Below are positions 12,445-62,579 of a DNA stretch of 64,000 bases, piece after piece (position 1 is the stretch's first letter; every line of letters starts with the position of its first letter). Origin of the DNA: Candidatus Moraniibacteriota bacterium (lineage in GTDB: Bacteria; Patescibacteriota; Minisyncoccia; Moranbacterales; UBA2206); NCBI GenBank assembly GCA_049297495.1, contig JBAQUL010000014.1:6359-70358 (forward strand), in the 5' to 3' direction. Under the pieces are notes generated by a model that worked only from the letters and a program-made list of their open reading frames with translations, searched no databases and was not told the origin of the DNA. The translations under genes and the position numbers were made by a program.

Positions 12445-12592
12445 TGTCATCCTGAGCGGAGTTCGTACTCGGACGCAGTCGAAGGATCTGCTTACGATAA
12501 TCCTAGTTTTCACGATTTATTACAAAACCTGCGATAACCTAGAGCAGATTCTTCGACTTCTCCGCCAGCTGGCGGATTCGCTCAGAATGACA
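12445..12592. repeat. MITE-like element family F1 (TGTCATCCTGAGCG...CGCTCAGAATGACA terminal inverted repeats), copy 1
   Basis: ~148 nt with 14-16-bp terminal inverted repeats and internal stems (cgaaggatct/agatccttcg; ccgccagctggcgg). Four copies at 12445, 14009, 44515 and 46982. Confidence 0.7.
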
Positions 12593-14008: not shown

Positions 14009-14168
14009 GAATTAGATTTGTCATCCTGAGCGAAGTCCTGTACTCAGGACGTAGCCGAAGGATCTACTAACCGTAACCCATGTCTTCCTATTTCATAACC
14101 AGACTTGAGATGATAGCAAGCAGATCCTTCGACTTCTCCGCCAGCTGGCGGATTCGCTCAGGATGACA
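14009..14168. repeat. MITE-like element family F1, copy 2
   Basis: tgtcatcctgagcgaagtcctgtactcaggac...ccgccagctggcggattcgctcaggatgaca, with perfect 16-bp terminal inverted repeats. Confidence 0.7.
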
Positions 14169-14487: not shown

Positions 14488-14576
14488 ATTGATATAAATT
14501 TAAAATTATTATAATTCGTATTTTTTGAAATTGGAAATTAGGATTTTGAAATTTACCAGACCTCCCCCCTAGGTAT

Positions 14577-23272: not shown

Positions 23273-24379
23273 CTAGTGATACTTCCCCATCCCCAAAATT
23301 CCGATGATAATTCCCATCAGCGCTGTGACGGCGGTGAAGATCCAGATGCGCATGGTGACTTTGGTTTCCGGCCAGCCTTTGGCTTCGAAGTGGTGATGAA
23401 TGGGGGCGGCGAGGAATACTTTGCGATGGAAGAATTTTTTGGAAGTCATTTGAATCACCACTGAGCCGGATTCAAGTACATAGATGAAAACAATGATAAA
23501 CAAAACTAGGGTTGAATTGGTGAGCATGGCCACGACGCCCAAGGTCGCACCCAAAGAAATCGCTCCGGTGTCTCCCATGAAAAACCGGGCGGGATGGATG
23601 TTGAACCACAGAAAAGCGAGAAGCGCTCCGGCAATCGCCACGCAAAAAGCGGCCAAGTCCATTTTATTTTGAAAAAAAGCAATGAGACCAAAAGAGCTGA
23701 AAGCGATGAGAAGCACTCCACCATTAAGTCCGTCCAGGCCGTCTGTTTCATTGGAAGAAATTGCGGCAAACAGAATAACGAACATGAAAAGTGGAATGTA
23801 CCAAAACCCAATATTAAAATCCCCCATGGCTGGAACGTGGATGTGGTGCCAATCTAGTTTATAGTAAAACCACCAAGCACCAAGAGCAGAAATGAGAATC
23901 AGCCAGCCAAAACGCGAAAGAAAGCGAATGCCTCCGCCTTTGTTTTTGCCCAGTCCGCGCACGCTCGCCCAATCGTCACAGAAACCCAAGATTCCAGCTG
24001 AAACGAGAGCGAAAAGTGGAAGCCAGACTTGCTTTCTGCTGAGAAAATCGAGACGCGCAAAAAAATTGATCCCCGACCACTGAGCAAATAGAGGGAAAAC
24101 GTAGTGCGAGGCTAAAGCCAGAACTAAAACGGAAAACCAGACCAAAATCCCTCCCATAACAGGCGTACCGCTTTTGTGCTTATGCAGTTCACTGACATAG
24201 GTCAGTTTTTCCCCATCAACCGAATTGGTTTTTATCTTTACCCCAATCTTATATTTATACAAAAAATGGGTCAGGACTGGCGTCAAAAAGAAGGCCAAGA
24301 GAAAAGCCAAAAAACCGGTGAAAAAAACTTTGAGCACATTGAGCACATCGGGAATAGTTTGAATTTGCGCTAGTTCCAT
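23273..24379 (-). CDS. mraY: Phospho-N-acetylmuramoyl-pentapeptide transferase
   Basis: NETDGLDGLNGG, FMGDTGAISLG and the MraY-specific PIHHHFEAKGWPETKV motif. Confidence 0.8.
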   Translation of the reverse strand: MELAQIQTIPDVLNVLKVFFTGFLAFLLAFFLTPVLTHFLYKYKIGVKIKTNSVDGEKLTYVSELHKHKSGTPVMGGILVWFSVLVLALASHYVFPLFAQWSGINFFARLDFLSRKQVWLPLFALVSAGILGFCDDWASVRGLGKNKGGGIRFLSRFGWLILISALGAWWFYYKLDWHHIHVPAMGDFNIGFWYIPLFMFVILFAAISSNETDGLDGLNGGVLLIAFSSFGLIAFFQNKMDLAAFCVAIAGALLAFLWFNIHPARFFMGDTGAISLGATLGVVAMLTNSTLVLFIIVFIYVLESGSVVIQMTSKKFFHRKVFLAAPIHHHFEAKGWPETKVTMRIWIFTAVTALMGIIIGILGMGKYH

Positions 24380-24387
24380 AATATTAT

Positions 24388-24531
24388 GACTTACACATTT
24401 ACCAAAAACAATCTTTAAAGCGCGTGGCTGTTTGTGGTTTGTTTTTTGCTTATTTTAACCCCTAAAACCATTAAAGTTTTCGGGATTAATCCTGGCTACA
24501 AAAAAGCTTATTCTTGGCAAACGTGTAAGTC
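24388..24531 (+). repeat. MITE-like element family F5 (GACTTACGCGTTTACCAAAAACAA...TTGCTTTTGGCAAACACATAAGTC terminal inverted repeats), copy 1
   Basis: 144 nt with ~24-bp terminal inverted repeats. Other copies at 56415-56559 (same orientation) and 59255-59398 (inverted). Confidence 0.7.
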
Positions 24532-26272: not shown

Positions 26273-26320
26273 AATATTTTATAACTTATTTTTATCGGTT
26301 AAGATAATTTTTGTTTATAT

Positions 26321-26467
26321 CCCCTTCTCCATTAGGGAGAAGGTGGCTGAAAGCCGGATGAGGGTGCTATGAGTAACATCAATGCTTTTAATTTAACTAT
26401 TAGCTTTATCTGCATAGGTAAAAACCCTCACCTGCCCTACGGGCATCCTCTCCCGGAGGGAGAAGAG
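26321..26467. repeat. Structured palindromic element family F2 (CCCCTTCTCCATTAGGGAGAAGG...CTCCCGGAGGGAGAAGAG), copy A
   Basis: ~150 nt between scpA and scpB with conserved hairpins and a covarying long-range stem. Other copies at 41512-41673 and 60180-60333. Confidence 0.7.
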
Positions 26468-27255: not shown

Positions 27256-30200
27256 CTAAACCACAATTTTCCTCTTCACAACTCCTCTCTCTTTTAAGGT
27301 AATAGTCTCTTCTTTTTGAGCAAACTGACTGGCATTAGTCATGGTCTTTAGAATGTAGTCTCCCGAGTTAGCCAGTAGAATGTAGCGTCCCTGTTCATCA
27401 GAGATAGTTCTAGCTATCAGTTGTTTGGTGTTACGATCAAGGAGAGAGATGGCGCTAAAAGGTTGCTTGGTGCCTTCTTTGTTGACGACATAGCCCCACT
27501 TGGAACCAAGATGAGTCATATTTCTGATGATGACATTGGCCAGGTAGATGAGTGTGATGAAAAGATTGAGACTAGTGGGGTTGGAGAGCGTGATGAAAAT
27601 GGTGAGAGCAAAACCCAAATAGAAGATAGCAGCAAAGAAGAAGTAGGAGAGGCGCTTGTTTTTGAAAGATTTCTGGTCGGGGTTAGTAGCCTTGAGACAG
27701 AGGTCATAGCAGATGATGCCGGAATCAGTGAAAGTCAGCTTTTTCTTTTCCGGATCAGTCAGGACATTTGTGTAGTAAGTTTTAGCGTCGATGTCATGAC
27801 TGTCAATGACATAGCCACTCTTTTTGATTTCTAGTTGGTATTCGCCCTTGGGAACGAGGAAGTAGTAGCTGCCAAGCTTATCAGTTAATTTTGTTTCTTT
27901 GGTTTTTCCAGTCGCAGCTTCAATCACACTGATGGAAACGAGCGGGATCGGGTCGCCGGTGGCGGAGTCATAGACCGTACCCCACATCTTTTTCTTTTTG
28001 GTTTTAGAAAGCAAACCGAAGAGTCCCAGGGGAAGATCGCGCAGAAGAATAGTCATATTTCGTTTTGCTGCGCGGGCTTGATAGAGTAGCGGAAGGAGTG
28101 AGGTGGAAAGTGCCATGGCCGCGACCGCTTGCGCTTCAGCTTCTTGCTCCTCGGGAATAGCGGGGAAAAGCGGAGGGGCGATGCGCTCCTCTCTATCTTC
28201 GATATTCGCAAGGATCCGTTTCTTTTCTTCTTGCTTTTTTGTTTCAGCTAATTTCTCTTCCTCCTGCTTAGTGGTTTCGGGCGTTGTTGGTTCATTGCTT
28301 GGGTTAGGCGGGATCAGCTCTTCAATTGGCACCGTATTCAATGCAAAGTTCGCCACAGCAAAGATGTTTTTGGTGATACTGGTATCAGTTCTGGGGTTTT
28401 GGACGTTGCCATCACTCCAATCAGTGAAGTGGTAGTTGTTGTCAGGGATAGCGGTGATTGAGGTACCACTCTCCCCTGCTTTTACAGTTTGATTAGCATT
28501 GCCGGAAAGGGTGCCGTTGCCTCCGGAAGTATAGGTGAGGGTGTAGGTTGTGTCTGTGGGAGTTTCTGTGTCGGAAGCAAAGTTGGCGGTGAGAGTGAGA
28601 TCAGCTTTGATGTCAGTATCAGTTCTCACCCTTTCTGTTTTGCCGTCACTCCAGTTAGTGAAGTGATAGTTAGTAGCAGGGAGAGCTTCGACTTCTTCTC
28701 CATCTTCTTTGTATTTCACTGTTTGATTAGCATCTCCTTGGATTGAACCATTGGAGTTGGCATTGTATTTAAGGGTGTATTCCTCTTTTTCAAATTCAGC
28801 GGTGACAGAGAGGTCTTCTTGGATGTTTTTGTCTTTTCTGGGATTACTGTCTTTTCCGTCACTCCATTCTTTGAAGAGATAACCGGTGTTAGGTTTAGCT
28901 TCCACTTCTTTGCCATCTTCGTCATAGCTGATAGTTTGGGTTTCGTCGCCATCAATTTCTCCGTTGCCGTCATCTCGGTATCTTAGAGTGAAAGTGTTTT
29001 TTTCGAAGTTGGCGGTGAGGGTGAGGTCAGTTTGGACGTTGGTATCGGTTCTAGTGGCTGACTCCAGATTGTCACTCCAGCTTACGAAGTGGTAGCCGGT
29101 GTTGGGAGTGGCGGTGACCGGTGTGCCATTGCTGCCGATGGTGACAGTCTGGGGAGTGGTGCCAGTGATGGTGCCGCCTGGGCCGGCGGTGTAGGTGAGG
29201 AGCAGCGCATTGCTAAAGTTGGCACTAACGTTTAGATTGGCTTGGACGTTAGTATCAGTTCTCGGGTTTTGCGTAGAGTTGTCACTCCAGTTCACAAAAC
29301 GATAACCAGCTATGGGAACGGCCGTGATTTGGGTGCCACTTTCTCCATGAGTAACAGTTTGAGAAGTGGTTCCGGTGAGTGATCCATTGGCATTGGCGGA
29401 ATATGTGAGAGTGTAAGAGTTGATGGCAAAGTTAGCGGTGTAGGTCGCATCCGCTTGGATATTGGTATCAGTCCTAGGGTTGTCGATTGAGTTGTCAGAC
29501 CAATCAGTGAAGTGGTAACCAACATTGGGGGTCGCTGTAACTTCCGTACCATCATCACCATAACTGACATTTTGTGGGTTGGTGCCGGTAATGGTTCCGC
29601 CTGAACCGGCGATGTAAGTGAGGATAAGGGCGTTACTGAAGTTAGCGGTAACAGTGATATTGTTTGTTACGTTAGTATCTGTCCTGGGGTTTTCTGTTGA
29701 ATTATCTGACCAGTTGACGAAGTGATAGCCGCTTGCTGGGACAGCAGTAATTTGGGTACCATCTGCTCCATGGTTCACGGTTTGCGGTGTCGTGCCAGTG
29801 AGTGATCCGTTAGCGTCGGCACTGTACATGAGAGTGTAAGAGTTGATCGCAAAGTTAGCAGTGACGGTGAGATTACTTGTTATGTTGGTATCAGTTCTGG
29901 GGTTGTCGGTGGAATTATCAGACCAATCGACAAAGTGGTAGCCGGTGTTGGGGACAGCGCTGACAGCTGTTCCGTCTGATCCGTGATCTATGGTTTGCGG
30001 GGTAGTGCCTGAGATTGTTCCGTTGGTGTCATGATTGTAGGTTAAAGTATAAGTGTCGATGGCAAAACTAGCCACTACGGTGATGTCTCCGGTAACATTG
30101 GTGTCAGTGCGAGCTGGATTGGTGCTGCCGCCATCCCAAGAGACAAAGTGCCAGCCGGGGTTCGGGATAGCAATGACTTCGGTTCCATTGCCTCCATAAT

Positions 30201-33200
30201 TGACTGTTTGGGGAGTGGTACCAGAGATAGTGCCTCCTGTTCCAGGATGGTACGTTAAGGTGTAGGCGTTAATGGCAAAGTTGGCAGTGACGGTAAGATT
30301 GCCAGTCACATTAGTGTCAGTTCTCGGGTTGTCAGTGGAACTGTCGGACCAGTTGACAAAATGATAGTTGGAGTTTGGGACAGCGCTGACAGCTGTTCCG
30401 TCTGCACCATCATTAACTATTTGAGGTGATGTACCAGAAACTCCTCCGTTCGCTCCGGCAGTATAAGTAAGAGTGTGGGTTATGACTGCGTTTTCGGCAA
30501 AGTTAGCAGTGACGGTAATATTGCTGGTAACATTAGTATCGATTCGAGGATTATCAGTATTGCTATCAGACCAATCAACAAAGTGATAGCCCACAGCAGG
30601 AACAGCAACAACTTCTGATCCGTCACCATTTTCAATCACAGATTGAGGAGTTGTTCCTGAGATTGATCCATTAGCTCCGGCAGTATAGGTCAAGGTGTAA
30701 CTCGTAACGCTTCCGAAAGTCCAAAGCTCTCTCCCATTATCACCATTATCAGCCACAAATATTGGCACATTATTAAGATTGACAATCCTGGCATTAGCAT
30801 TTACACCATCACCTCCAACAAAAATATCTTCCACCATCTTCGTTCCAACAGTTGTTCCATCTGATTCCCAAAGTTCGGACCCATGACTCGAAGAACCATC
30901 AGTTGCCTTAAAATACATGATACCATCAACATTGGTCAGCTTACTGGGTTCAGTGGCACCCGCTCCAGAATAGATATCTTTAACTAGGACTGTTCCGCTT
31001 TCAGTTCCATCAGTTTTCCAAAGTTTTCCCGGGTACTGGCCAGCACTAAAATAGAGGCTAACATCGGAAGCGGCATAATTATTTGGGTTGGAAAATGCTC
31101 CCACTGTAATATCCTTTACCAGAACCGTTCCACTTGCGGTGCCATTTGATTTCCAAAGTTCATTGCTATGAACACCATCATCTGCAGCAAAATACACCTC
31201 ATTATTATACACAAAGAGATTATATCCAAAGGACCCATTAGACCCGTCGTAAATATCTTTAACCATTACCGTTCCACCCACTGTACCATCTGATTTCCAA
31301 AGTTCACTGCCATTAATACCATTGCTAGCATTGAAATACAGCGCATTACCGATACTCACTAATGTTTCTATGCCAGAACCATTCGAACCCGGATAAATAT
31401 CCTTGACCATCGTTGTGCCATCACTTGTTCCGTCCGAACGCCACAACTCAGGACCGTTGACATTGTCATTGGCCTTGAAATATAAAATGCCATTCATGCT
31501 GGTGAGCAGATATGGATAGATTGAATCATCTCCCACTCCCGGATAAATATTTTTCACCATCTCCGTTCCACTCTCAGTACCATCTGATTTCCAAAGCTCA
31601 TAGCCATTACCATCATTAGCGGAAAAATAGAAAATGCCATTCACGTCGCCCCTAGCGCTCGCCCAATAATACAAGCCATCTTGCGTACCAATATAAATAT
31701 CTTTCACGAGCACTGTTCCACTTTCTGTGCCGTCTGTTTTCCACAATTCTCTCCCATGCACACCGTCATCAGCCGCAAAATATAGCGTATCGCCCACAAC
31801 GTGGAAAAGACTAGGTGAAGCATAAATTGAATTCCCAAGATTAATATCTTTAACCATGGTAGTTCCAATAATTGTGCCGTCTGTTTTCCAAAGCTCATAG
31901 CCATGAATACCATCGTTAGCAGAAAAATATGTCTCCCCATTAAAGATAGTCAAGTTATCTGGGTATGCACTACCTTTTGTTAGATTCGTATCCCGCACAA
32001 GAACAGTTCCCCCACTTGTGCCATCTGTTTTCCAGGGCTCTTCACCATGATCACCATCACTAGCAGCGAAATACAGTGTTCCACCAGCATCAACCATGCG
32101 TGATGCCAATGAGCCATTAAATCCAGCGAAAATATCTTTCATCATCACTGTTCCCCCTGATGTACCGTTTGATTTCCAAAGCTCCTTCCCATGGACACCA
32201 TCACTGGCCTGAAAATACAATTCTCCCCCAAATCCTCCTGTAATTCTCATGTCACTATAGAAAACCAAAGAAACACCATCAGAAATACCTGGGTTAATGT
32301 CCTTAACCAAGTTAGTGCCAAGATTCGTTCCATCCGACCGCCAAAGCTCATTACCATCAGGACCATCATTGGCAAAGAAATATAATATACCACCAACGTT
32401 GGTCAAGAGACTGGGATAGGAGGAGCCACCAATAACACTGATATCTTTAACAATCGAAGCGCCACTACCATCAGCTTTCCATAACTCAGCACCATGAGAA
32501 TGATGTTGCTCATCAAAAGAATCATAATAATAATCTGTCGCTTGAAAATACAATGCGCCATTCATCGTCTTAAAATAACTCGGATCCGAACCAATCGCTC
32601 CCTCATAGATATCGCCAACTATTGTCGTGCCAGCGCTTGTTCCGTCCGATCTCCACACCTCATCACCAATCGCTCCCGTCCTGGCAACGAAATAGAAAAC
32701 ACCACCAACATTTTCCGCAACCTTAAAACCATTGTTCTTCGCATATCCATAAGTAATAGAATCAAGTCCGCTACTGCTTCCAGCATAAATATCTCTCACC
32801 ATCTCAGTTCCACTAGGCGTTCCATTAGATTTCCAAAGCTCATAACCATTAACACCATCATCTGCCCCAAAATACAAAATTCCGTTGACATCAGTCAGGC
32901 CAAGAATAAATCCACCTGTAGCGCTAGGGTTCGTGTCCTTCACGATCTCAGTTCCAATTTCCGTGCCATCAGATTTCCAAAGAGTGTCGTTACACGCCCA
33001 ATATAAAGATCCACCGCTCGCTACGGGATCTGAATGATCAGCGCAAACTTCAACGCCTGATTTCACCAATACCGTACCAGCTATCGTCCCATCAGATTTC
33101 CACAGTTGATCCTCTGACGCGAAAGTAAGCACTCCATAGAATGCAACTCCATTAACATCAGTTATGTCAATTCTGTCGCTATTCATAAAAGTACCCAGAA

Positions 33201-36200
33201 GCACAGTTCCATCGTGCGTTCCGTCAGAACCCCAAACTTGCATACTATTTCCCGATGTACCTTCCAGTGTGTCACCACCTTTCTCCGTGAAAAAAACCTT
33301 CCCGCCACTTCCTTCCATGCTCCAAATTGTTCCACCAGCATCCGTTGTCTTGTTGATATCAATCATGTACGGATCCCCGAGTATTCTTGTAAAATTAACT
33401 GTAACGGAAATATTGGAATTTATATCAGTGTCCGTTCTGGGATTCTGAGTGGATCCATCACTCCAATCAACAAAACGATAGCCTGCATCCGGAATTGCAG
33501 TTACGACCGTACCATCTCTTCCTGGATTAACTGATTGAGACAGATTGCCCGAAAGAGTCCCTCCGGCTTCTCCGGTATAGCTTAGAGTATAAATAATATT
33601 TGAAAAGGTAGCGGTTACATTAATATTGCCAGTAACGTTAATGTCGGTTCTGGGATTTTGAGTGGATCCATCACTCCAATCAACAAGATGATAGGTAGAA
33701 TCAGGAATTGCCTCAACTGCTGAACCGCTAGCACCATGATTAACAGTCTGTGCTGTTACTCCAGAAAGAGAACCATTGGCCGCAGCAGCATAATTCAACG
33801 AATAAACATTGATTGCAAAATTAGCGGTAACCGCAATATGATTTGTCACGTTCGTATCAGTTCGACTGGCCGTCATCACTCCGTCGCTCCAATCGACAAA
33901 ATGATAACCCGTATCGGAAACGGCAGTAACAGCAGAAGCATCATTACCATCATCAACTACCTGCGGAGAAACACCGGAAATTGTTCCGTTTAATCCGGCG
34001 GTATAGGTTAAAGTGTAGGGAGCAAAAAGAGCCGTGACAGTAATGTTATCCTGAACATTAGTATCGGTTCTTGGATTTTGAGTTGAGCCATCACTCCATC
34101 TCGTGAAATGATATGTCGAATCAGGACTTGCCGTAACCGCGCTACCATCTGCCTCATAGGCAACTGTCTGGGGAGTTGTACCACTAATAGAACCATGCAG
34201 TCCCGCGACATAAGTCAACGTTAAATTTTCTGGAGCAAAATTAGCAGTGACAGAAATATTATTCGTCACGTCCAGATCTGTTCTCGGATTTTGAGTGGAA
34301 CCATCGCTCCAACTGGCAAAATGATAATCTACGTCAGGAATCGCCGTGACCGCCGTTCCATTGGAACGGTAAGCGATAGTTTGAGAAGTTGCGCCAGAAA
34401 GTGTTCCATGCGCTCCTGCGGCATAGCTCAATGTGCGAGTATCATTTTGAAATTCTATCGTAACATCTGAAATTGAGGAGGCATTTCTTCCATCGGACAA
34501 AAGAAAAATTTTATATTGAACATATTGATCATCGGTCTTATCATTCTGAGTATCATCAATCAATTCATCCCCGACAGAATCAGTGAAGTATGTCGTTGAA
34601 CTGCAAGATCCCGCGACGCCATCATTCGGTCCACACCAAGGAGTCCAGTTCGCATTGTCCGGAGAAGTACGAAGCTGAAAATTAATATCAGAACCAGGAA
34701 GCAAAGTTTCATTCCAACGCAACTTTCCCATAATCGCCAGCAGAAGATTCGTGTTATAGCTTGAAGATTGAAGAATTTGATTAGTTGGATAATACTGATA
34801 ATTGAAAGTAATGTCGCTCAAGGTCGGCGTTGCAGTTGTGTCCGTAGTGGCTAAATTCGCACGATACTGAAAATATTGACTTGTACCAAGCGCTGAGATA
34901 CTTGCTCCAGTCGAAACATCAAGTTGCCAATCCGTCCAAGTCCCATCAGGCGTTCCAACACTTCCCGCACGAATATCAATCGTTAGGGTTGTGTTTGCCG
35001 GAGTAGTTTTGGTAAATGCAAGTGTGTCAGGAAAAGATTTTTGACCTGAATCTATGATGGATGAAATGAATGTTCCTGGGGTGCTAAATGTTATCGCGCC
35101 AAAATTAAAATTTGGTCCAGCATCCTTCACTTGAGTTGGTGTGAGTCTTTGTGTCGTGGTCATGTCGCCCAATTGACCATTACCATTATTCCCCCAACAA
35201 TAAACCGTATTGCCTGATTCAAAAGTACAAGAATGTGCATTGCCCGTTGTGACATCGCTAGCACCAGCTAGATTGCCAGATCCACCAACTCCCAAGACTT
35301 GAATTGGAGCTAACTTTTGAACAACAGTATTATCGCCTAGTTGACCATTGGTATTAAGCCCCCAGCAATATGCTGAACCGTCAGATATAGCCGCACATGA
35401 ATAGGCATAACCAGAAGCAATTCGACTAACACCAGCCAAAGTGCCAGCACCGCCCACACCCTTCACTTGGGTTGGGATAAGTCTTTGGGTCGTACTATTA
35501 TCACCCAATCTTCCGTTAGTGTTTAGCCCCCAACAATAAGCCGCACCGTCTGATTTGACAGCGCAAGTATGCGCATCTCCAGCTGAAATTTGATTAACAC
35601 CAGTTAGACTGCCCAATACCTGAACGGGAGCTGGCCTTTGTGTGGTAGAATTATCTCCCAATCGTCCGTTTAAGTTATATCCCCAGCAATAAGCAGTACC
35701 ATCAATTTTTGCGGCGCAAGTATGCGCCATTCCTGCAGAAACCCGACTGACACTTGTTAAGTTTCCCGCACCACCTACGCCCAAAACTTGGATAGGTGCG
35801 TTTCTCTGTGTCGTAGTATTATCTCCCAATTGACCAGTGCCATTACTTCCCCAACAAAAAACTGTATTATCCGTTTTAACAGCGCAAGTATGAAAACTTC
35901 CGGCTTCAACACTACTAACACCCGTCAAAAAGCCACTCCCACCAACTCCCTTCACTTGAACTGGCGTATATCTGATTGAAGTTGTATTGTCTCCAATCTG
36001 GCCACTACTATTACTTCCCCAGCAATAAACTGTGCCATCCGTTTTTAATGCGCAAGAGTGAGAATCTCCCGTTGCTACCTGACTAACGCTGGTTAAATAC
36101 CCAGTTCCGCCAACATCCACCACCTGAACTGGAGCAGATGAACCAGAAGATGAATTATTTCCCAGCTTGCCGCTACTGCCATCTCCCCAGCAATATGCCG

Positions 36201-39200
36201 AGCCATCTGATTTGGCAGCACAACTATGATATGGTCCTGCTGAAATCTGACTCGCGCTTGCGATATCTCCCACCGTTCGCACATATACCGGAGTAGATCT
36301 AGTTGTAACTGAAGTGTCTCCTAGCTGACCGTTGCTATTATATCCCCAACAATAAGCCAAACCATCAGATTTAAGCGCGCAAGTATGAAAAGTTCCCCCT
36401 GCAATTTGCCTGATGTCAGCCAAATTACCAACACCCCCGACGCCCAAAACTTGAACCGGAGTGGTTTTTATTACATTAGTACCATCCCCCAATTGATAAT
36501 AATTATTCCTCCCCCAACAAAAAGTGGAACCATCTGGTTTAACAGCACAAGTATGATATGCCCCCAGAGCTACCTTGCTGACACCTGTCAAAAATCCAGT
36601 TCCTCCCACACCTCTCACCTGAACCGGGGTCAATCGTCCCCAAGGACTCGACCCAACAGTCGTGCCATCTCCCAACTGACCATAATCATTTCCACCCCAA
36701 CAGAAAACCGATTCATCAGATTTGGTAACACAAGAGCTATTACCATTCGACTCTAATTGGGTAGCATCAGTTAAATATCCAACCCCGCCAACTCCCTTAG
36801 TTTGCACCGGGGTTAATGCTTGAATAGTAGAATTATCACCAAGTTGGCCATTACCATTGCCTCCCCAACAAAAAACAGTGCTATCAGACTTAAGCGCGCA
36901 AGCATGCTGATTTCCTGCCGAAATTCGACTCACGTCAGTCAAATTACCCGTTCCGCCAACACCTAGCACTTGCGTTGGTGTAAGCTTTCGCGCGACAGTA
37001 TTATCACCTAATTGACCAGTGCCATTATAGCCCCAGCAATAAACTGAACCATCGGATTTAAGGGCGCAAGTATGAGAACTTCTTGCAACAATCTGACTGA
37101 CTCCGGCCAAAGTATCAACTCCATCAACTCCTAATACTTGAACAGGAGCGGTTCTTTGCACCAGAGAATTATCTCCTAATTGTCCATTATTGTTTCCACC
37201 CCAGCAATAAACTGAACCGTCGGATTTAAGGGCGCACGTATGAGTATACCCTGCCGCAATTTGAACTATACTGGTCAAGTTTCCTGAGCCGCCCACACCA
37301 ACTACTTGTACAGGAACATATCTATCTCCAGTAGTATTGTCGCCCAAATAACCACTAGTATTACTCCCCCAACAAAAAACCGTGCCATCTGGTTTAAGAG
37401 CGCAAGTATGTGTATCGCCTTCAACCACCTGATTAACCGTACCTAAGAGACTTACAGCCGAATTACTACTTTGCGTATTAGAGTTAGTTCCCGCATTAAA
37501 ATCCGCATTAGTGGTTTGAATTTCTGAGCCACCTTTTGATTGAAGTAATAACTCTGTTGTCGCTGCAATATCGCCATCCTTGCTTGAATATTCAGTCCAA
37601 TTTTGGGCATTGCCGGCATGACTCGCAATATCGCTTGACACTCCTCCGATCCAACTAGTCTGCGTCCACGCTTCATGCAAATCATCAATACCGATTGAAA
37701 AATTAGCCGTAACATTAACGTCGCCAGTTATATTGATATCCGTCCTACTAGCTGAAGTTGCCCCATCGCTCCAATTAAAGAAATGATAACCAGTATCAGG
37801 AACTGCGACTACGGTTGAACCACTTGACCCATAATTAACAGTTTGTGGTGAAGTGCCAGTGAAAGTTCCGTTGGGACCGGCGGTGTATGTCAAGGTATGC
37901 GAGTTAATCGCAAAATTAGCGCTAACCGAAAGATTACTTATCACATCCGTGTCCGTTCTGGGATTTTGCGTTGAACTATCGCTCCAGTCGACAAAGTGAT
38001 AGCCCACACTAGGAACAGCTGTAACCGCAGAACCATCCGACCCACGATCGACTGTTTGCGGTGAAGTACCAGAAATTGTTCCATTAGCGCCTGCAACATA
38101 AGTCAATGTATAGGTATCGATTGCAAAATTTGCGGTAAAAGTATTGCTAACTTGAACGTTAGTGTCTGTTCTAGGATTTTGCGTTGAACTATCGCTCCAA
38201 TTAACAAAGTGATAGTTCGCGTTAGGAACAGCCGTAACAGCAGAACCATTACCATCAAAAATAATTGACTGAGAATAGTCGCCAACTATCGTTCCATTGG
38301 AATCTGCAACGTATGTTAACGTGTAAACATTGGAAAAATTAGCAGTCACATTGATATTGCTTGTCACATTAGTGTCTGTTCTAGGATTTTGAGTAGAACC
38401 ATCATTCCAATCTACAAAATAATATCCGCTATCAGGATTTGCGGTGACCGCCGTCCCGCTACCGCCATCGATAATAGTTTGAGGAGATGTCCCAGAAATA
38501 GATCCATTAGATCCAGCCGTGTACGTTAAAGTTCGAAACACAACAGTAGTGTCCAGCGACATTAGTTCAGATCCATTCACGCCGTTATTTCCTGAAAAAA
38601 ACAAGTATTGATCTTTTTTCGTAAAGTTTTCTATCTCGGAGACGGTATTATCAACCTGTATTGTATTGGAACCGTCCGTCTTCCAAATATGACTGTCCCA
38701 CCAGTTCCCGGTATCAAAATATGAGAAATATAAAACATCATTCATGTCAATCATTTCATCACAACCCGCAGTGCTTGTACCACCCATCACAAGCGTAGCG
38801 CCTCCGCTATCAATTTTCCAAAGACCATTATTGCCAACACTGGAATTATAGATAAGCGTATATAGAGCGCCATTTGAGATGACATTGCTGTCTGGATATG
38901 AGTCACCCACCCCCAAGTTAACATCTTCCAATAGGACTGTTCCGCCTTCGGTACCATCAGATTTCCAAAGCTCTCCACCATGAACACCGTCATCAGCAAA
39001 AAAATACAGATTACCATCAAATACTACAAAATCACAGGGATCGCCGTCACTCGTTCCTGGATTAATATCCTTTACCAGTACAGATCCTGATGCCGTGCCA
39101 TCAGATTTCCAAAGTTCATATCCATGCTCAGCATCAGTGGCTTCGAAAAATAGACTTCCATTAAAGACGATAAAATTATAAGGATCAAGACTGGAATCAC

Positions 39201-39870
39201 CACGCAAGACGGTACCAATTTCTGTACCATCTGTTATCCACATTTTCCACTCACCTGTATCATCAGAAGCATTAAAATAAATAAGTCCATTGAACTCAAC
39301 AAAGCTATTCGCATAGCTGTCTCCACTTCCCAGGTTGATATCTTTCAGCATTACTGTGCCAATTTCTGTGCCATCGGACTTCCAAGGTTCAACTCCGTGC
39401 ACACCATCGTTTGCAAGAAAATAAAGAACATCATTAATATTACTGATATTATAAATATCAGCATTGCCAATGCCCGGATTAATATCTTTCACCATTACTG
39501 TCCCGGCTGCAGTACCATCTGACTTCCAAAGTTCATTTCCATGAGTACCATCATCATTAACGGTGAAATAGATTAGGTTGCCCACCGCAAAACTCAGATG
39601 AGGAACGGAATCATCAATGCCCGGATTGATATCTTTCACCATTACTGTTCCGGCTGCAGTACCATCTGACTTCCAAAGTTCTTGTCCGCTAACACCATCA
39701 TTAGCTACGAGATACACCAAATCTCCGACACGAAGAGAATCGGAGATTTGACCGCCATCTGCTCCTGCATAAATATCTTTGACAAGCACTGGACTAGCTG
39801 CACGGACATTCCCTGCACCCAAGAATATGGTACTACAAACCAAACTAAAAAGAAGAACTTTGTATTTCAT
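27256..39870 (-). CDS. Giant (~4200 aa) secreted/membrane-anchored multi-repeat surface protein with ELWxxDGT repeats, Listeria-Bacteroides (Flg_new) repeats, an RCC1 double propeller, and C-terminal TM plus carboxypeptidase-regulatory-like domains
   Basis: Single uninterrupted 12.7-kb ORF (the track gives 27256..39951; start placed at MKYKVLLFSLV, a signal peptide). See the finding for the domain map. Numerous antisense ORFs inside it are ignored. Confidence 0.85.
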   Translation of the reverse strand: MKYKVLLFSLVCSTIFLGAGNVRAASPVLVKDIYAGADGGQISDSLRVGDLVYLVANDGVSGQELWKSDGTAAGTVMVKDINPGIDDSVPHLSFAVGNLIYFTVNDDGTHGNELWKSDGTAAGTVMVKDINPGIGNADIYNISNINDVLYFLANDGVHGVEPWKSDGTEIGTVMLKDINLGSGDSYANSFVEFNGLIYFNASDDTGEWKMWITDGTEIGTVLRGDSSLDPYNFIVFNGSLFFEATDAEHGYELWKSDGTASGSVLVKDINPGTSDGDPCDFVVFDGNLYFFADDGVHGGELWKSDGTEGGTVLLEDVNLGVGDSYPDSNVISNGALYTLIYNSSVGNNGLWKIDSGGATLVMGGTSTAGCDEMIDMNDVLYFSYFDTGNWWDSHIWKTDGSNTIQVDNTVSEIENFTKKDQYLFFSGNNGVNGSELMSLDTTVVFRTLTYTAGSNGSISGTSPQTIIDGGSGTAVTANPDSGYYFVDWNDGSTQNPRTDTNVTSNINVTANFSNVYTLTYVADSNGTIVGDYSQSIIFDGNGSAVTAVPNANYHFVNWSDSSTQNPRTDTNVQVSNTFTANFAIDTYTLTYVAGANGTISGTSPQTVDRGSDGSAVTAVPSVGYHFVDWSDSSTQNPRTDTDVISNLSVSANFAINSHTLTYTAGPNGTFTGTSPQTVNYGSSGSTVVAVPDTGYHFFNWSDGATSASRTDINITGDVNVTANFSIGIDDLHEAWTQTSWIGGVSSDIASHAGNAQNWTEYSSKDGDIAATTELLLQSKGGSEIQTTNADFNAGTNSNTQSSNSAVSLLGTVNQVVEGDTHTCALKPDGTVFCWGSNTSGYLGDNTTGDRYVPVQVVGVGGSGNLTSIVQIAAGYTHTCALKSDGSVYCWGGNNNGQLGDNSLVQRTAPVQVLGVDGVDTLAGVSQIVARSSHTCALKSDGSVYCWGYNGTGQLGDNTVARKLTPTQVLGVGGTGNLTDVSRISAGNQHACALKSDSTVFCWGGNGNGQLGDNSTIQALTPVQTKGVGGVGYLTDATQLESNGNSSCVTKSDESVFCWGGNDYGQLGDGTTVGSSPWGRLTPVQVRGVGGTGFLTGVSKVALGAYHTCAVKPDGSTFCWGRNNYYQLGDGTNVIKTTPVQVLGVGGVGNLADIRQIAGGTFHTCALKSDGLAYCWGYNSNGQLGDTSVTTRSTPVYVRTVGDIASASQISAGPYHSCAAKSDGSAYCWGDGSSGKLGNNSSSGSSAPVQVVDVGGTGYLTSVSQVATGDSHSCALKTDGTVYCWGSNSSGQIGDNTTSIRYTPVQVKGVGGSGFLTGVSSVEAGSFHTCAVKTDNTVFCWGSNGTGQLGDNTTTQRNAPIQVLGVGGAGNLTSVSRVSAGMAHTCAAKIDGTAYCWGYNLNGRLGDNSTTQRPAPVQVLGSLTGVNQISAGDAHTCAVKSDGAAYCWGLNTNGRLGDNSTTQRLIPTQVKGVGGAGTLAGVSRIASGYAYSCAAISDGSAYCWGLNTNGQLGDNTVVQKLAPIQVLGVGGSGNLAGASDVTTGNAHSCTFESGNTVYCWGNNGNGQLGDMTTTQRLTPTQVKDAGPNFNFGAITFSTPGTFISSIIDSGQKSFPDTLAFTKTTPANTTLTIDIRAGSVGTPDGTWTDWQLDVSTGASISALGTSQYFQYRANLATTDTTATPTLSDITFNYQYYPTNQILQSSSYNTNLLLAIMGKLRWNETLLPGSDINFQLRTSPDNANWTPWCGPNDGVAGSCSSTTYFTDSVGDELIDDTQNDKTDDQYVQYKIFLLSDGRNASSISDVTIEFQNDTRTLSYAAGAHGTLSGATSQTIAYRSNGTAVTAIPDVDYHFASWSDGSTQNPRTDLDVTNNISVTANFAPENLTLTYVAGLHGSISGTTPQTVAYEADGSAVTASPDSTYHFTRWSDGSTQNPRTDTNVQDNITVTALFAPYTLTYTAGLNGTISGVSPQVVDDGNDASAVTAVSDTGYHFVDWSDGVMTASRTDTNVTNHIAVTANFAINVYSLNYAAAANGSLSGVTAQTVNHGASGSAVEAIPDSTYHLVDWSDGSTQNPRTDINVTGNINVTATFSNIIYTLSYTGEAGGTLSGNLSQSVNPGRDGTVVTAIPDAGYRFVDWSDGSTQNPRTDTDINSNISVTVNFTRILGDPYMIDINKTTDAGGTIWSMEGSGGKVFFTEKGGDTLEGTSGNSMQVWGSDGTHDGTVLLGTFMNSDRIDITDVNGVAFYGVLTFASEDQLWKSDGTIAGTVLVKSGVEVCADHSDPVASGGSLYWACNDTLWKSDGTEIGTEIVKDTNPSATGGFILGLTDVNGILYFGADDGVNGYELWKSNGTPSGTEMVRDIYAGSSSGLDSITYGYAKNNGFKVAENVGGVFYFVARTGAIGDEVWRSDGTSAGTTIVGDIYEGAIGSDPSYFKTMNGALYFQATDYYYDSFDEQHHSHGAELWKADGSGASIVKDISVIGGSSYPSLLTNVGGILYFFANDGPDGNELWRSDGTNLGTNLVKDINPGISDGVSLVFYSDMRITGGFGGELYFQASDGVHGKELWKSNGTSGGTVMMKDIFAGFNGSLASRMVDAGGTLYFAASDGDHGEEPWKTDGTSGGTVLVRDTNLTKGSAYPDNLTIFNGETYFSANDGIHGYELWKTDGTIIGTTMVKDINLGNSIYASPSLFHVVGDTLYFAADDGVHGRELWKTDGTESGTVLVKDIYIGTQDGLYYWASARGDVNGIFYFSANDGNGYELWKSDGTESGTEMVKNIYPGVGDDSIYPYLLTSMNGILYFKANDNVNGPELWRSDGTSDGTTMVKDIYPGSNGSGIETLVSIGNALYFNASNGINGSELWKSDGTVGGTVMVKDIYDGSNGSFGYNLFVYNNEVYFAADDGVHSNELWKSNGTASGTVLVKDITVGAFSNPNNYAASDVSLYFSAGQYPGKLWKTDGTESGTVLVKDIYSGAGATEPSKLTNVDGIMYFKATDGSSSHGSELWESDGTTVGTKMVEDIFVGGDGVNANARIVNLNNVPIFVADNGDNGRELWTFGSVTSYTLTYTAGANGSISGTTPQSVIENGDGSEVVAVPAVGYHFVDWSDSNTDNPRIDTNVTSNITVTANFAENAVITHTLTYTAGANGGVSGTSPQIVNDGADGTAVSAVPNSNYHFVNWSDSSTDNPRTDTNVTGNLTVTANFAINAYTLTYHPGTGGTISGTTPQTVNYGGNGTEVIAIPNPGWHFVSWDGGSTNPARTDTNVTGDITVVASFAIDTYTLTYNHDTNGTISGTTPQTIDHGSDGTAVSAVPNTGYHFVDWSDNSTDNPRTDTNITSNLTVTANFAINSYTLMYSADANGSLTGTTPQTVNHGADGTQITAVPASGYHFVNWSDNSTENPRTDTNVTNNITVTANFSNALILTYIAGSGGTITGTNPQNVSYGDDGTEVTATPNVGYHFTDWSDNSIDNPRTDTNIQADATYTANFAINSYTLTYSANANGSLTGTTSQTVTHGESGTQITAVPIAGYRFVNWSDNSTQNPRTDTNVQANLNVSANFSNALLLTYTAGPGGTITGTTPQTVTIGSNGTPVTATPNTGYHFVSWSDNLESATRTDTNVQTDLTLTANFEKNTFTLRYRDDGNGEIDGDETQTISYDEDGKEVEAKPNTGYLFKEWSDGKDSNPRKDKNIQEDLSVTAEFEKEEYTLKYNANSNGSIQGDANQTVKYKEDGEEVEALPATNYHFTNWSDGKTERVRTDTDIKADLTLTANFASDTETPTDTTYTLTYTSGGNGTLSGNANQTVKAGESGTSITAIPDNNYHFTDWSDGNVQNPRTDTSITKNIFAVANFALNTVPIEELIPPNPSNEPTTPETTKQEEEKLAETKKQEEKKRILANIEDREERIAPPLFPAIPEEQEAEAQAVAAMALSTSLLPLLYQARAAKRNMTILLRDLPLGLFGLLSKTKKKKMWGTVYDSATGDPIPLVSISVIEAATGKTKETKLTDKLGSYYFLVPKGEYQLEIKKSGYVIDSHDIDAKTYYTNVLTDPEKKKLTFTDSGIICYDLCLKATNPDQKSFKNKRLSYFFFAAIFYLGFALTIFITLSNPTSLNLFITLIYLANVIIRNMTHLGSKWGYVVNKEGTKQPFSAISLLDRNTKQLIARTISDEQGRYILLANSGDYILKTMTNASQFAQKEETITLKERGVVKRKIVV
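35150..37420 (-). repeat. ~14 tandem RCC1 repeats (CWGxNxxGQLGD) inside the giant protein gene (approximate bounds)
   Basis: Repeated CALKSDGSVYCWGxNxNGQLGDNT units read from the minus-strand translation. Confidence 0.7.
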
Positions 39871-40295
39871 CCTATTAAAAGATTTTATCTGACTATTTAT
39901 TTGATTATTTTTTTTAAAACTCTCCGTCTCACATTCATCCGACACCAACATGACGGAAATTTACTCAGAGCCGCCCCTGAAATTTCACTCTAATAATTCT
40001 CAGGCTACATTTAACTAATCTCACTCTAGACATGCATATTTTCAGATTTCAGCTTCAACCCTAATTTTCTTCAACCATTCTTCTTACTTGCTCTACTGTA
40101 TCACAGTTATCAAAAGATAAACACCCCTCAAATAAACAATATTGATTATTACTAAAATAACCAGACCATCATTAAAATCAACACTCCTTCTCCGCACAAC
40201 TCTCACATGAATCATAGCACGGCTAGCGCTTTTTTTGAAAATACAAAACAAACCCGTCACTATTCCCACAATAAGTCAAATCATTAATAGCTTCG

Positions 40296-41501: not shown

Positions 41502-41511
41502 TGTAGTAGCG

Positions 41512-41673
41512 TCCCCTTCGCCCTTAGGGAGAAGGTGGCCGAAAGCCGGATGAGGGAGGGAGCTCACCATGAAAAACTAGTTTTTTTATTTTTATTTAAT
41601 ATTATTCTTTTCCTATAGCCTCCTCCCTCACCTGTCACGAGTACGTGACATCCGCTCCCTAAGGGAGAAGAGG
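41512..41673. repeat. Structured palindromic element family F2, copy B
   Basis: tccccttcgcccttagggagaaggtggccgaaagccggatgagggaggga...cctcctccctcacctgtcacgagtacgtgacatccgctccctaagggagaagagg. Confidence 0.7.
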
Positions 41674-44514: not shown

Positions 44515-44655
44515 TGTCATCCTGAGCGAAGTCCTGTACTCAGGACGCAGTCGAAGGATCTGCTCGAGGTAATCCTAAGTTTTACCACAAAGAATTAAGC
44601 TAGTGATAACGGTGAGCAGATTCTTCGACTTCGCTACGCTACGCTCAGAATGACA
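44515..44655. repeat. MITE-like element family F1, copy 3
   Basis: tgtcatcctgagcgaagtcctgtactcaggacgcagtcgaaggatctgctcgagg...ctacgctcagaatgaca. Confidence 0.7.
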
Positions 44656-44884
44656 ACAAAAAACAAAAATCCCGACTGTCTCGGGAGTTAGCGTCAAATC
44701 TTTTTCCTATATATTCTTTAACAGAAAAAAGCTGCTCCCGAAGCAATGGCATGATCACAGCAACAACAAAAAAGACTGCCGAGTTGAAAATTCTGAGAAT
44801 TAGACTTTTTTAAATTCATTTTTTTACAAGTTTTAACCTGAAATTAATATAACCTAAAATTTGAAATTAAGCAAATACGTCATA

Positions 44885-46981: not shown

Positions 46982-47107
46982 TGTCATCCTGAGCGAAGTC
47001 CTGCACTCAGTCTGCTCGAGGTAATCCTAAGTTTTACCACAAAGAATTAAGCTAGCGATAACGGTGAGCAGATTCTTCGACTTCGCTCCGCTACGCTCAG
47101 AATGACA
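46982..47107. repeat. MITE-like element family F1, copy 4 (internal deletion relative to copy 3)
   Basis: tgtcatcctgagcgaagtcctgcactcagtctgctcgaggtaatcctaag...cgctacgctcagaatgaca. Confidence 0.7.
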
Positions 47108-47151
47108 ACAAGGGATTATTTTTTACACAAACAAAGGGTTGCCTCTATAAA

Positions 47152-56333: not shown

Positions 56334-56414
56334 TTTTGTTTTACTATCCAGTTAAGTTGCCATAAGTCCGATTTTTTATGGCAGGATCAACAAGATATTT
56401 TTTTGTTTTTTTAT

Positions 56415-56559: not shown

Positions 56560-56567
56560 CTGTTTTT

Positions 56568-59229: not shown

Positions 59230-59254
59230 AAAATACTAACTTTAAAAAAATCAG

Positions 59255-59398: not shown

Positions 59399-59410
59399 AT
59401 AAAAATAAAT

Positions 59411-60061
59411 ATGGAAGAAATAAAAATGACGAGAAAAGACGTCGCGTTTGCAACTGGCGCCGGCCTTCTTATTGGACTTCTGCTGCTCCCAGTTCTAAAA
59501 ACCGCCAAACCAGAACTCTATTACAGTCTATCACTCTGGATTGTGCCATTTTTTCTCATTGCCACTCCCTTTGGGCTAACTGTCGCCTATTATATCAGCA
59601 AAAAAATTGCCGTCATCTGGCAACTAGGGAAATTCGGTGTCACAGGAGTGATGAATGTTTTGGTTGATATGGGCGTCCTCTCTCTGCTGATCGCCTTTTT
59701 CAGGGATTCATTTAGGATTAATGCCAAAGATGCGGTCATAGCTGGACTGGGAATTCTCACTTTCTATTCCCTCTATAAAGCCGCTTCCTTCATCATTGCC
59801 AACATCAACAGCTACCTTTGGAACAAATATTGGACCTTCAATCAAACTGGTGAAAAGAAAACTGAATTTATCCAATTTTTTCTCGTCAGTGTTCTTGGCT
59901 TCATCATCAACGTCACTGTCGCATCACTAGTTTTCCGCTTGGGCAATCCCACTGGCGATCTTTCACAAGGACAATGGGGTCTAATCGGCGCCGCCATGGG
60001 AAGTATTGTCGGCCTGGCTTGGAATTTCATTGGTTACAAGTTTTTCGTTTTCAAAAAATAG
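59411..60061 (+). CDS. GtrA-family membrane protein with an N-terminal 2-TM extension
   Basis: KFGVTGVMNVLVDMGVL and YLWNKYWTF motifs of the GtrA family. Confidence 0.55.
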   Translation: MEEIKMTRKDVAFATGAGLLIGLLLLPVLKTAKPELYYSLSLWIVPFFLIATPFGLTVAYYISKKIAVIWQLGKFGVTGVMNVLVDMGVLSLLIAFFRDSFRINAKDAVIAGLGILTFYSLYKAASFIIANINSYLWNKYWTFNQTGEKKTEFIQFFLVSVLGFIINVTVASLVFRLGNPTGDLSQGQWGLIGAAMGSIVGLAWNFIGYKFFVFKK

Positions 60062-60179: not shown

Positions 60180-60333
60180 CCCCTTCTCCATTAGGGAGAA
60201 GGTGGCCAAAGGCCGGATGAGGGCAAGGGTGTTATATTGAGCAAAAACGAAGCTAGTTTAGATTATTCCTAATATATAGCCCTTGCCCTCACCTGTCACG
60301 TGCTCGCGACATCCTCTCCCGAAGGGCGAGGAG
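60180..60333. repeat. Structured palindromic element family F2, copy C (upstream of dnaX)
   Basis: ccccttctccattagggagaaggtggccaaaggccggatgagggcaagggtg...cccttgccctcacctgtcacgtgctcgcgacatcctctcccgaagggcgaggag. Confidence 0.7.
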
Positions 60334-62561: not shown

Positions 62562-62579
62562 CCTTGTGTGTAATATCAA

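Follow-up and report, generated by a model that had tools for sequence, protein, structure and literature searches.

What kind of element stands three times between the genes of a short stretch of a patescibacterial genome, and does it act as RNA or as DNA? The stretch, called here the window, is 64 kb of DNA (40.7% GC) from a metagenome-assembled genome of Candidatus Moraniibacteriota, belonging to the Patescibacteria, or candidate phyla radiation (CPR). Its repeat family F2 is present at 26323-26466 (copy A), 41515-41671 (copy B) and 60182-60332 (copy C), in all cases on the plus strand and in intergenic DNA. An earlier note had placed three copies at these sites, had listed blocks that are indeed present in them, and had considered the element to be a novel noncoding RNA (ncRNA) or a highly structured miniature inverted-repeat transposable element (MITE). 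Its description of a multi-copy, highly structured intergenic element is supported by the present analysis. In our opinion, each copy is probably made up of two unlike modules in inverted arrangement, both being intrastrand triplex motifs of the kind known from Escherichia coli as BoxC, PIT or TMECO, with a hairpin in the second loop. We take the element to be a DNA-level repeat and not an RNA gene.

Module anatomy and covariation

Each copy consists of two inverted GC-rich modules of ~42-47 nt (GC 0.57-0.67) around an AT-rich centre. A module begins with a 9-nt pyrimidine arm (CCTTCTCC), which is followed by a 3-nt loop, a 9-nt purine arm (GGGAGAAGG), a single T, a second hairpin (hp2, 11-16 nt in the window modules) and, last, a purine tail of 9 nt (GGATGAGGG). 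Intramolecular purine-motif triplexes are built in this way: a pyrimidine strand, a loop, a purine strand, another loop and an antiparallel third strand succeed one another. The left modules, of the alpha type, read CCTTCTCC(A)-TTA-GGGAGAAGG-T-GGCYRAARGCC-GGATGAGGG, and the right modules, of the gamma type, read TCYTCKCCC-NNN-GGGAGMGGA-T-hp2-AGGTGAGGG on the minus strand. The centres measure 60, 68 and 62 nt in copies A, B and C, have a GC content of 0.27-0.34 (0.41 in the window) and are barely alignable among the copies, which agrees with the AT-rich, unconserved insert of the earlier note. A covariance model (CM R1), built from 16 hairpin-bearing modules with 42 positions each, found exactly six modules in the window, three on the plus and three on the minus strand, with E-values from 1.6e-14 to 1.7e-7, and detected there no further copies and no solo modules. 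The parsing Y(9)-loop(3)-R(9)-linker-R'(9) holds for all six, with 7-8 of 9 canonical triads in each, and this order of blocks recurs throughout the family in the CM alignment.

The 9-nt tail is complementary to nothing in its own module; it mirrors the purine arm, with T for A at one position. Such arm and tail pairs are GGGAGAAGG with GGATGAGGG, GGGAGAGGG with GGGTGAGGG and GGGAGAGGA with AGGTGAGGG, and the type-specific positions change jointly in mirror register, together with their Watson-Crick partner in the pyrimidine arm. Among modules unconstrained by the search patterns, GGGAGAAGG/GGATGAGGG was found 55 times and GGGAGAGGG/GGGTGAGGG 74 times, the two cross combinations being met once each; of 122 modules whose tail (GGA..) had been fixed by the scan, 120 had GGGAGAAGG as the free arm. 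Mutual information reached 0.70 bit between positions r7 and t3 and 0.27 bit between r9 and t1, and was ~0 off register. In 90 distinct unconstrained modules, canonical triads (G*G-C, A*A-T, T*A-T) made up 98.0% in the mirror register, 50-55% with the tail slid by 1-2 nt and 85% in the direct register. At the two variable positions of the same modules these shares were 95.6% (mirror), 43% (swapped) and 69% (direct), corresponding to 172 of 180 canonical triads against 122.7 +/- 4.8 with tails shuffled (0 of 2000 shuffles as high). Rare variants also obey the rule: the pair GGGGGAGGA/AGGAGGGGG is mirrored perfectly, and GGGAGAAAT/CAATGAGGG fits as well.

The long-range stem between the two tails, on which the earlier note had laid stress, must be regarded as secondary to this rule. 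When the left tail of the window elements (GGATGAGGG) is set against the right tail's complement (CCCTCACCT), a G.T and an A.C remain; these fall at precisely the two positions at which a tail has to agree with the arm of its own module, and so the mirror rule outranks the stem. Stem extensions peculiar to each copy were found as described in copies A and C; in copy B the right arm is really cctcctccctc and not tccctccctc, with ~8-10 bp paired.

Hairpin formation is well conserved. Compared with shuffled sequences, the whole elements gave z-scores of -4.3 (A), -6.5 (B) and -6.4 (C) in RNA folding, and the element folded as single-stranded DNA gave -5.0 (plus strand) and -4.8 (minus strand). 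In single-stranded DNA folding an isolated module forms two hairpins with the tail unpaired, the ViennaRNA software having no triplex model. Covariation was assessed after fitting 150 matches, 137 of them distinct, to the model; in the resulting alignment standard pairs occupied 96.0% of hairpin cells, as compared with 88.4% in shuffled alignments (0 of 500 as high) and 48-74% with the partner slid, although such an alignment is biased towards the model. Across the family, double-sided changes affected 8 of 13 hairpin pairs; hp2 was paired in 99.6% of cases, with covariation at each of its four pairs. The hp2 sequences are diverse but always self-complementary (for example, GGCCGAAGGCC, GCCCGTAGGGC, GTCGCGAAGCGAC and GTCACATAGTGAC), and therefore the claim that the fold is kept by compensatory changes stands. 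The covariation of the small hairpin within the window was likewise confirmed, with GGCT/AGCC in copy A, GGCC/GGCC in copy C and an intermediate state with a C.A mismatch (GGCC/AGCC) in copy B. In hairpin 1, formed by the pyrimidine and purine arms, internal G.T pairs were counted 69 times on the module's own strand and 25 times on the complement, a tentative difference as the copies are non-independent.

The left module of copy A (26323..26364, plus strand; CM R1 65.3 bits, E=1.6e-14; 8/9 canonical Y-R*R triads) comprises the pyrimidine arm CCTTCTCCA at 26323-26331, the loop at 26332-26334, the purine arm GGGAGAAGG at 26335-26343, the T at 26344, the hp2 GGCTGAAAGCC at 26345-26355 and the mirror purine tail GGATGAGGG at 26356-26364; as single-stranded DNA it is predicted to form two hairpins and to leave the tail free. 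It is followed by the variable centre (26365..26424, 60 nt, GC 0.27), the edges of which lengthen the tail-to-tail stem (GGGT/ACCC), and by the right module, TCTTCTCCC-TCC-GGGAGAGGA-T-GCCCGTAGGGC-AGGTGAGGG (26425..26466, minus strand; 63.2 bits, E=5.2e-14; 8/9 triads). The left module of copy B (41515..41556, plus strand; 63.9 bits, E=3.5e-14; 8/9 triads) has a pyrimidine arm with a T->G change, CCTTCGCCC, of the 'mm' type discussed below, and the hp2 GGCCGAAAGCC with its C.A mismatch. Beyond the centre of this copy (41557..41624, 68 nt, GC 0.28), the right module (41625..41671, minus strand; 37.2 bits, E=1.7e-7; 7/9 triads) has, on the minus strand, the 16-nt hp2 GTCACGTACTCGTGAC. Copy C begins with a left module with the hp2 GGCCAAAGGCC (60182..60223, plus strand; 64.5 bits, E=2.5e-14; 8/9 triads) and continues with a centre (60224..60285, 62 nt, GC 0.34) containing a long imperfect palindrome, GGGCAAGGG.../...CCCTTGCCC. 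Its right module (60286..60332, minus strand; 45.7 bits, E=1.3e-9; 8/9 triads) has the 'mm' pyrimidine arm TCCTCGCCC and a 16-nt hp2, in which one A.C mismatch on the plus strand corresponds to a G.T pair on the minus strand.

An AT-rich (t)ttatatC precedes hairpin 1 in most CPR copies (26313-26322 and 60172-60181 in the window, and the related loci L009, L143, L155, L158 and L238), and gATATTT follows the right module in some of them. The unit may reach ~8 nt past its modules, or sites of this kind may be favoured for insertion.

Kinship with the BoxC, PIT and TMECO repeats

The motif was first named the BoxC repeat of E. coli, then the potential intrastrand triplex (PIT) element by Maher's group (Hoyne/Maher 2000, 2002), and then TMECO (Holder et al. 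2015, NAR 43:10126, PMC4666352). According to the last of these papers, the consensus is CCCTCNCCC-N3-6-GGGNGAGGG-N3-GGGNGAGGG, and the corresponding oligonucleotides form a stable class II triplex in vitro, as shown by circular dichroism and nuclear magnetic resonance, with melting temperatures of 70-82 C. The same authors reported 3610 occurrences in 262 proteobacterial genomes, always intergenic, and inverted pairs at 5 of 18 sites in E. coli MG1655, each pair consisting of one type A and one type B motif. TMECO showed neither promoter nor terminator function and left conjugation unaffected; it was not linked to transposons, phages or plasmids and marked intergenic sites varying between strains (PMC4666352). 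The PIT elements of E. coli had no effect on RNA polymerase or termination.

Literature searches with strings of the element sequence and of its peptides gave no match, and this family was reached through the idea of a mirror repeat and a triplex. In E. coli MG1655, CM R1 recovered TMECO 1 and 2 of Holder's Table 1 in the hrpB-mrcB spacer, the former at 164547-164580 (38.7 bits, E=6e-9) and the latter at 164597-164631 (35.8 bits, E=3e-8). The alignments show 3 nt instead of hp2, and the two motifs form the same tails-inward pair around a 17-nt centre. Moreover, canonical short-loop modules are partners of hairpin-bearing modules within single elements at loci of Geobacteraceae, Kuenenia and Planctomycetota. 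Three 9-nt blocks on one strand (pyrimidine, purine and mirror purine, class II), their G-rich composition with the core TC.CCC / GGG.GA / TGAGGG, the intergenic position, the occurrence singly or as inverted pairs of two types with tails inward, the 'mm' mismatch, variable presence among close relatives and the lack of an associated transposase are common to F2 modules and TMECO. The building block is thus a known motif, and the word 'novel' in the earlier note cannot be retained for it.

The F2 modules differ from TMECO in several respects. Loop 2 consists of 12-17 nt with a covarying hairpin of 4-7 bp, whereas in TMECO it is 3 nt long (TTA/CCG); the arms and tails are GGGAGAAGG/GGATGAGGG and GGGAGAGGA/AGGTGAGGG instead of GGGNGAGGG/GGGNGAGGG; and the spacer of paired modules is an AT-rich stretch of 60-68 nt as compared with ~17 nt in E. 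coli. The host belongs to the Patescibacteria/CPR and the variant occurs in many non-proteobacterial phyla, while triplex formation was shown for the E. coli motif alone. The left modules of the window, CCTTCTCCA-TTA-GGGAGAAGG-(12 nt)-GGATGAGGG, and the right ones, TCTTCTCCC-TCC-GGGAGAGGA-(12-17 nt)-AGGTGAGGG, depart from the published consensus, in which loop 2 has 3 nt, and F2 is therefore a variant and not literal TMECO. Published triplex searches would miss it because the loops allowed were 1-6 nt in ITxF and 0-10 nt in Hoyne's search.

The 'mm' type, a T->G change in the pyrimidine arm, accounts for 13 of 23 motifs in MG1655 (PMC4666352). The same change was found in 2 of 6 window modules (41515-41523 and 60324-60332) and in 36 of 137 metagenome modules. 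This change (CC.TCGCCC, with G opposite A of purine-arm position 4) recurs in the alpha, beta and gamma types and in distant phyla; it reflects either a structural preference or a hotspot of mutation.

Distribution, gene context and rival explanations

An exact-pattern scan (GGTGGCNNNNNGCCGGATGAGGG) of one genome per GTDB species gave at least 120 loci. Geobacteraceae, Planctomycetota, Thermoanaerobaculia, many Alphaproteobacteria and Ca. Kuenenia are represented among the matches listed, together with Patescibacteria, Chloroflexi, Clostridia, Elusimicrobiota, Verrucomicrobiae and others. In this genome scan a CCTTCTCCC-loop-GGGAGAAGG hairpin stood directly upstream in 126 of the 137 matches listed, and therefore these are homologous modules and not chance matches. 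For metagenomes, scanned with the right-module pattern, counts likewise rest on the matches listed. The module is common in replicons of Sinorhizobium, Shinella and Rhizobium and rare in phage records and viral contigs: 50,697 of the former gave three weak matches, and IMG/VR gave 18 loci. On these counts, a phage vector was rejected.

The 300 best CM matches comprised 130 single modules, 46 tails-inward pairs (the arrangement of the window, median gap 41 nt), 39 tails-outward pairs and six tandem pairs; the pattern-based 'solo' class overcounts singles, since the CM found many weaker partners. In the inverted pairs the linkers differ in 84 of 85 cases and the tail types in 64 of 85. Whole units form tandem arrays at two loci (L055 and L104), and one element is nested in a further 20-bp inverted repeat. 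All-against-all clustering of 2689 open reading frames (ORFs) from 120 loci revealed no recurrent protein neighbour, the clusters being generic families only (ABC ATPase, histidine kinase, SDR, sulfatase, ECF sigma and others), and where the modules of a pair lie far apart, the genes that separate them are ordinary ones, such as those of enolase and a TPR protein. No associated transposase or REP-associated tyrosine transposase (RAYT) was thus found next to these loci, and the result matches the absence of a link to mobile elements reported by Holder. The hairpin-1 side of single modules follows the 3' end of a co-oriented gene in 51 cases against 19, counts that depend on crude ORF calls and non-independent copies. 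Divergent '-+' contexts are rare (5 of 43 and 1 of 26), again by crude gene calls, which placed 41 of 127 modules 'inside' called ORFs. The excess of G.T pairs in hairpin 1 and the gene-orientation bias tentatively hint at a single-strand-specific role, compatible with RNA or single-stranded DNA.

In the window, the gene context given by the earlier note was borne out by Pfam. Copy A lies between scpA and scpB (ScpA/ScpB), both on the minus strand, and begins 4 nt past the scpA stop codon, within the scpAB operon; the ScpB encoded here has 100% identity to a protein listed by NCBI under Candidatus Moraniibacteriota. Copy B lies between the genes of an AspS-type class II tRNA synthetase (tRNA-synt_2) and a transporter of the major facilitator superfamily (MFS; MFS_1), both on the minus strand, and copy C is flanked by a GtrA-like gene and by dnaX, which are both plus-strand genes. 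The orientation relative to transcription therefore varies, the element being antisense to the surrounding genes in A and B and sense in C.

Loci also vary between close relatives, as seen in a small sample. The scpA-scpB spacers of two relatives with ScpB 88% identical (L122 and L124) measure 104 and 163 nt and lack the element, and that of a relative with 92% ScpB identity (P0002 contig) is 115 nt, too short for it. At the aspS-MFS site of L124 the element stands in the opposite orientation to the genes as compared with copy B. In element orientation the two centres align with a score of 11 against a shuffle mean of -7.0 +/- 3.3, a significant similarity, and hence the flip concerns the unit as a whole, including its differing left and right modules. 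Recombination between left and right modules was rejected as the cause of the flip, the distinct modules themselves having swapped sides. The empty scpAB site and the flipped element argue against a strand-specific ncRNA. No direct repeat consistent across 11 CPR copies was found as a target-site duplication, and the empty sites were too diverged for junction mapping.

Several known groups of repeats resemble F2. It shares with the repetitive extragenic palindromic (REP) sequences, their RAYT-associated doublets (REPINs) and the bacterial interspersed mosaic elements (BIMEs) two inverted short palindromic units with a spacer forming a long hairpin, and a multi-copy, intergenic distribution with mosaic alternating modules. 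No RAYT or other partner was found for it at 120 loci, and it differs from them by its cross-phylum occurrence and by the mirror purine tail, which has no REP counterpart; of the conserved GT[AG]G head, GTGG is present only in the alpha type (GGTGGC), the gamma type having GGATGC/GGATGT. With MITEs such as Correia/NEMIS, RUP, Nezha and Chunjie the likeness consists in a length of ~150 nt, inverted ends, intergenic position, including that within operons, and a long stem-loop potential. For F2, no target-site duplication was resolved and no parent insertion sequence (IS) with matching ends was found; in contrast to MITEs, its half-elements are as common as pairs, and pairs occur in both relative orientations. 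The Rhizobium-specific intergenic mosaic elements (RIME, Osteras 1995) are also mosaic palindromic intergenic repeats, and F2-type modules are abundant in rhizobial replicons; however, F2 is not RIME, because the type locus (the chvI-chvG spacer of S. meliloti) contains other, AT-richer palindromes, without a CM R1 match at E<=1. Some further identities were rejected. A hammerhead-like ribozyme core was dismissed by eye, as CGGAUGAG differs from CUGAUGAG at a conserved U, and had no Rfam support; ORFs from the ATG of GGATGAGGG, considered as a small peptide of the centre, have 4-22 codons and are unconserved; and, as regards an intrinsic terminator, the hairpins are not followed by a T-tract on either strand.

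How the element spreads is a matter on which a mobile-element explanation, partly compatible with the triplex motif, deserves attention. It supposes a MITE- or REPIN-like non-autonomous element copied in trans by a transposase encoded elsewhere, either RAYT-like of the HUH class or of the IS630 type. The layout of two inverted modules with a spacer is REPIN-like; the copies are multiple, being present, absent or oppositely oriented at orthologous sites; near-identical modules in many phyla imply horizontal spread; the G.T excess on the module strand fits a single-strand substrate; and the CPR copies share the AT-rich (t)ttatat left flank. Nevertheless, we find this explanation unlikely, as there is no transposase or recurrent family beside 120 loci and only ordinary genes between distant pairs, the target-site duplication was not resolved, and the module is rare in viral contigs. 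REP sequences are lineage-specific, but the F2 module crosses phyla; ~40% of modules are solo, and the pairs are tails-inward or tails-outward and heterotypic, unlike the products of copying of one master; and Holder (PMC4666352) saw no association with transposons, phages and plasmids. With no target-site duplication resolved, no transposase partner found and many modules single, 'MITE', the name proposed earlier, is likewise not demonstrated.

The two explanations that place the function in RNA are weaker still. A shielding role in 3' untranslated regions, similar to that of REP and BIME sequences, where GC-rich hairpins would protect the upstream mRNA from 3' exonucleases or modulate operon expression, is quite improbable, although the elements are intergenic, lie for the most part downstream of genes and hardly ever occur in divergent promoter regions, copy A is located immediately after scpA inside its operon, and REP-type repeats of S. 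meliloti are present in small-RNA fractions. A structured ncRNA or cis-regulatory RNA, transcribed and acting through a five-helix fold, is in our estimation the least probable of all, in spite of very stable predicted folds, covarying hairpins, an internal G.U excess on the module strand and the position of solo modules behind the 3' end of co-oriented genes. In S. meliloti 1021, microarray and Affymetrix 'sRNA' signals were recorded on both strands over a tails-outward pair of pSymB (930388-930507, L121), according to the supplementary tables of Schlueter et al. 2010, and these could reflect real repeat transcription or cross-hybridisation among repeats. The ncRNA is opposed by the comparison with Rfam in gathering and E-value modes, which gave no family at threshold for the window or 20 loci of other phyla and only sub-threshold noise from hairpins of miRNA precursors; the complementary strand folds equally well; the orientation relative to genes differs among the copies and is reversed at the orthologous aspS-MFS site; the element is missing from the orthologous scpAB spacer of relatives; its centre is unconserved; and no T-tract follows the hairpins. 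Furthermore, the conserved mirror purine tail has no Watson-Crick role in an RNA, purine-motif triplexes do not form in RNA (PMC4666352), and the E. coli PIT elements lack promoter and terminator activity. The arguments from strand and orientation apply equally to the 3'-untranslated-region role, which also leaves the mirror tail unaccounted for, relies on the crude gene calls mentioned above and disagrees with the indifference of RNA polymerase and termination to PIT elements in E. coli.

The interpretation of F2 copies as paired triplex motif modules has, in turn, to face a number of unfavourable facts. In vivo footprinting with dimethyl sulfate in E. coli gave no evidence of a stable triplex (Holder 2015, PMC4666352). 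In the variant, the linker is a hairpin of 12-17 nt, the triads include A*A-T and T*A-T, and each module has one that is non-canonical. The mirror covariation is carried mainly by three large subfamilies and hence reflects few independent events, GGGAGAGGG is its own mirror image, which makes the signal partly trivial, and several singletons break the rule, for example, four changes at arm position r4 without a change in the tail. The gene-orientation bias, based on crude counts, was not seen in E. coli by Hoyne and Holder, and the spread across phyla is left unexplained by the triplex motif.

Neighbouring sequences, possible mechanism and significance

Other features of the window may be briefly described. 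The longest-ORF call of the MFS gene (40296-41570, minus strand) enters copy B and thereby gains a spurious N-terminus (MVSSLPHPAFGHLLPKGEGD...), the true start being probably the methionine of MPKHKEHL... near 41498. Such repeats seed spurious ORFs and N-terminal extensions, as in this gene and in peptides like ...LLPKGEG..., and the repeat-derived peptides are likely to be a source of bogus hypothetical proteins and extensions in many genomes. Between the MFS gene and scpA, a giant ORF of 4231 aa (27256-39951, minus strand) has internal repeats with periods of ~144-213 nt; it represents an insertion or deletion difference between relatives, because the MFS gene and scpA adjoin in L124.

A second repeat family of ~100-165 nt with 82-91% identity occupies 24379-24480, 56408-56569 and, inverted, 59245-59407. 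The first and the last of these copies lie directly upstream of gene starts (23273..24379, minus strand; 59411..60061, plus strand), two inverted copies bracket a 2.7-kb segment, and the family looks like a shared leader or promoter-type repeat. Another intergenic family is found at 12471-12592, 14047-14168, 44543-44664 and 47011-47111, where 44559-44659 and 47011-47111 are 98% identical and the remaining copies 62-77%. A GC-rich hairpin, CCTGCCTACCAGACAGGCAGG, forms an inverted pair at 46309-46341 / 46437-46469, and two metagenome relatives (L164 and L238) carry a closely related hairpin, CCTGCCTGCCGGTAGGCAGG, as an insertion in their left modules, where it separates hairpin 1 from hp2; thus, small palindromic units nest in one another. 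Short AT-rich simple repeats of the GAAATT/GGAAATT type are scattered over several spacers (1545-1576, 14524-14555, 46599-46644, 57297-57360 and 57613-57644). A tRNA-Gln(ttg) gene at 62490-62563 (plus strand) was called by both Rfam and ARAGORN, whereas a weak Rfam tRNA at 62132-62202 (plus strand, 30.8 bits, just above the threshold) was not called by ARAGORN.

An F2 module may, as we propose, fold when its DNA becomes transiently single-stranded, on the lagging-strand template, in a transcription bubble or during repair. The pyrimidine arm would pair with the purine arm to give hairpin 1, the hp2 hairpin would serve as a compact turn, and the 9-nt purine tail would then fold back antiparallel on the purine arm by reverse-Hoogsteen G*G-C, A*A-T and T*A-T contacts, producing a class II purine-motif triplex. 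In pairs, the two tails could alternatively pair with each other, giving the long hairpin of the earlier note. If formed in vivo, such structures might stall polymerases and promote template switching, and the resulting instability or spread would explain the gain, loss, flips, nesting and tandem arrays observed among close relatives.

Summarizing the significance of these data, it may be said that a false lead, a new RNA gene, has been removed, and that a repeat of CPR bacteria has been tied to a poorly understood family that forms triplexes in vitro and marks unstable intergenic sites. The covarying hairpin of 12-20 nt that loop 2 of the motif can accommodate, the A-containing triads with extra A-T positions in the arms, the CPR host and the natural variants that alter arm and tail jointly in mirror register are new in comparison with the published motif, and the family extends well past Proteobacteria to Patescibacteria, Planctomycetota, Acidobacteriota and others. 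A more far-reaching proposal, which we regard as doubtful, treats the hairpin-bearing module as a DNA element under structural constraint, maintained in many bacterial phyla, CPR genomes of ~1 Mb included. On this view, the joint change of both arms and the mirror tail testifies, in evolutionary terms, to an intrastrand purine-motif triplex that forms in cells and is selected there. If the coupling of arm and tail survives a phylogeny-aware test, it will bear on whether triplexes exist and matter in vivo. Should the proposal be true, a DNA triplex in vivo would for the first time be supported by evidence of the covariation type, and the 30-year-old question of the role of BoxC and PIT would be reopened, the element being then not a by-product but a signal for the machinery of replication, repair or recombination, or for an unknown conserved protein.

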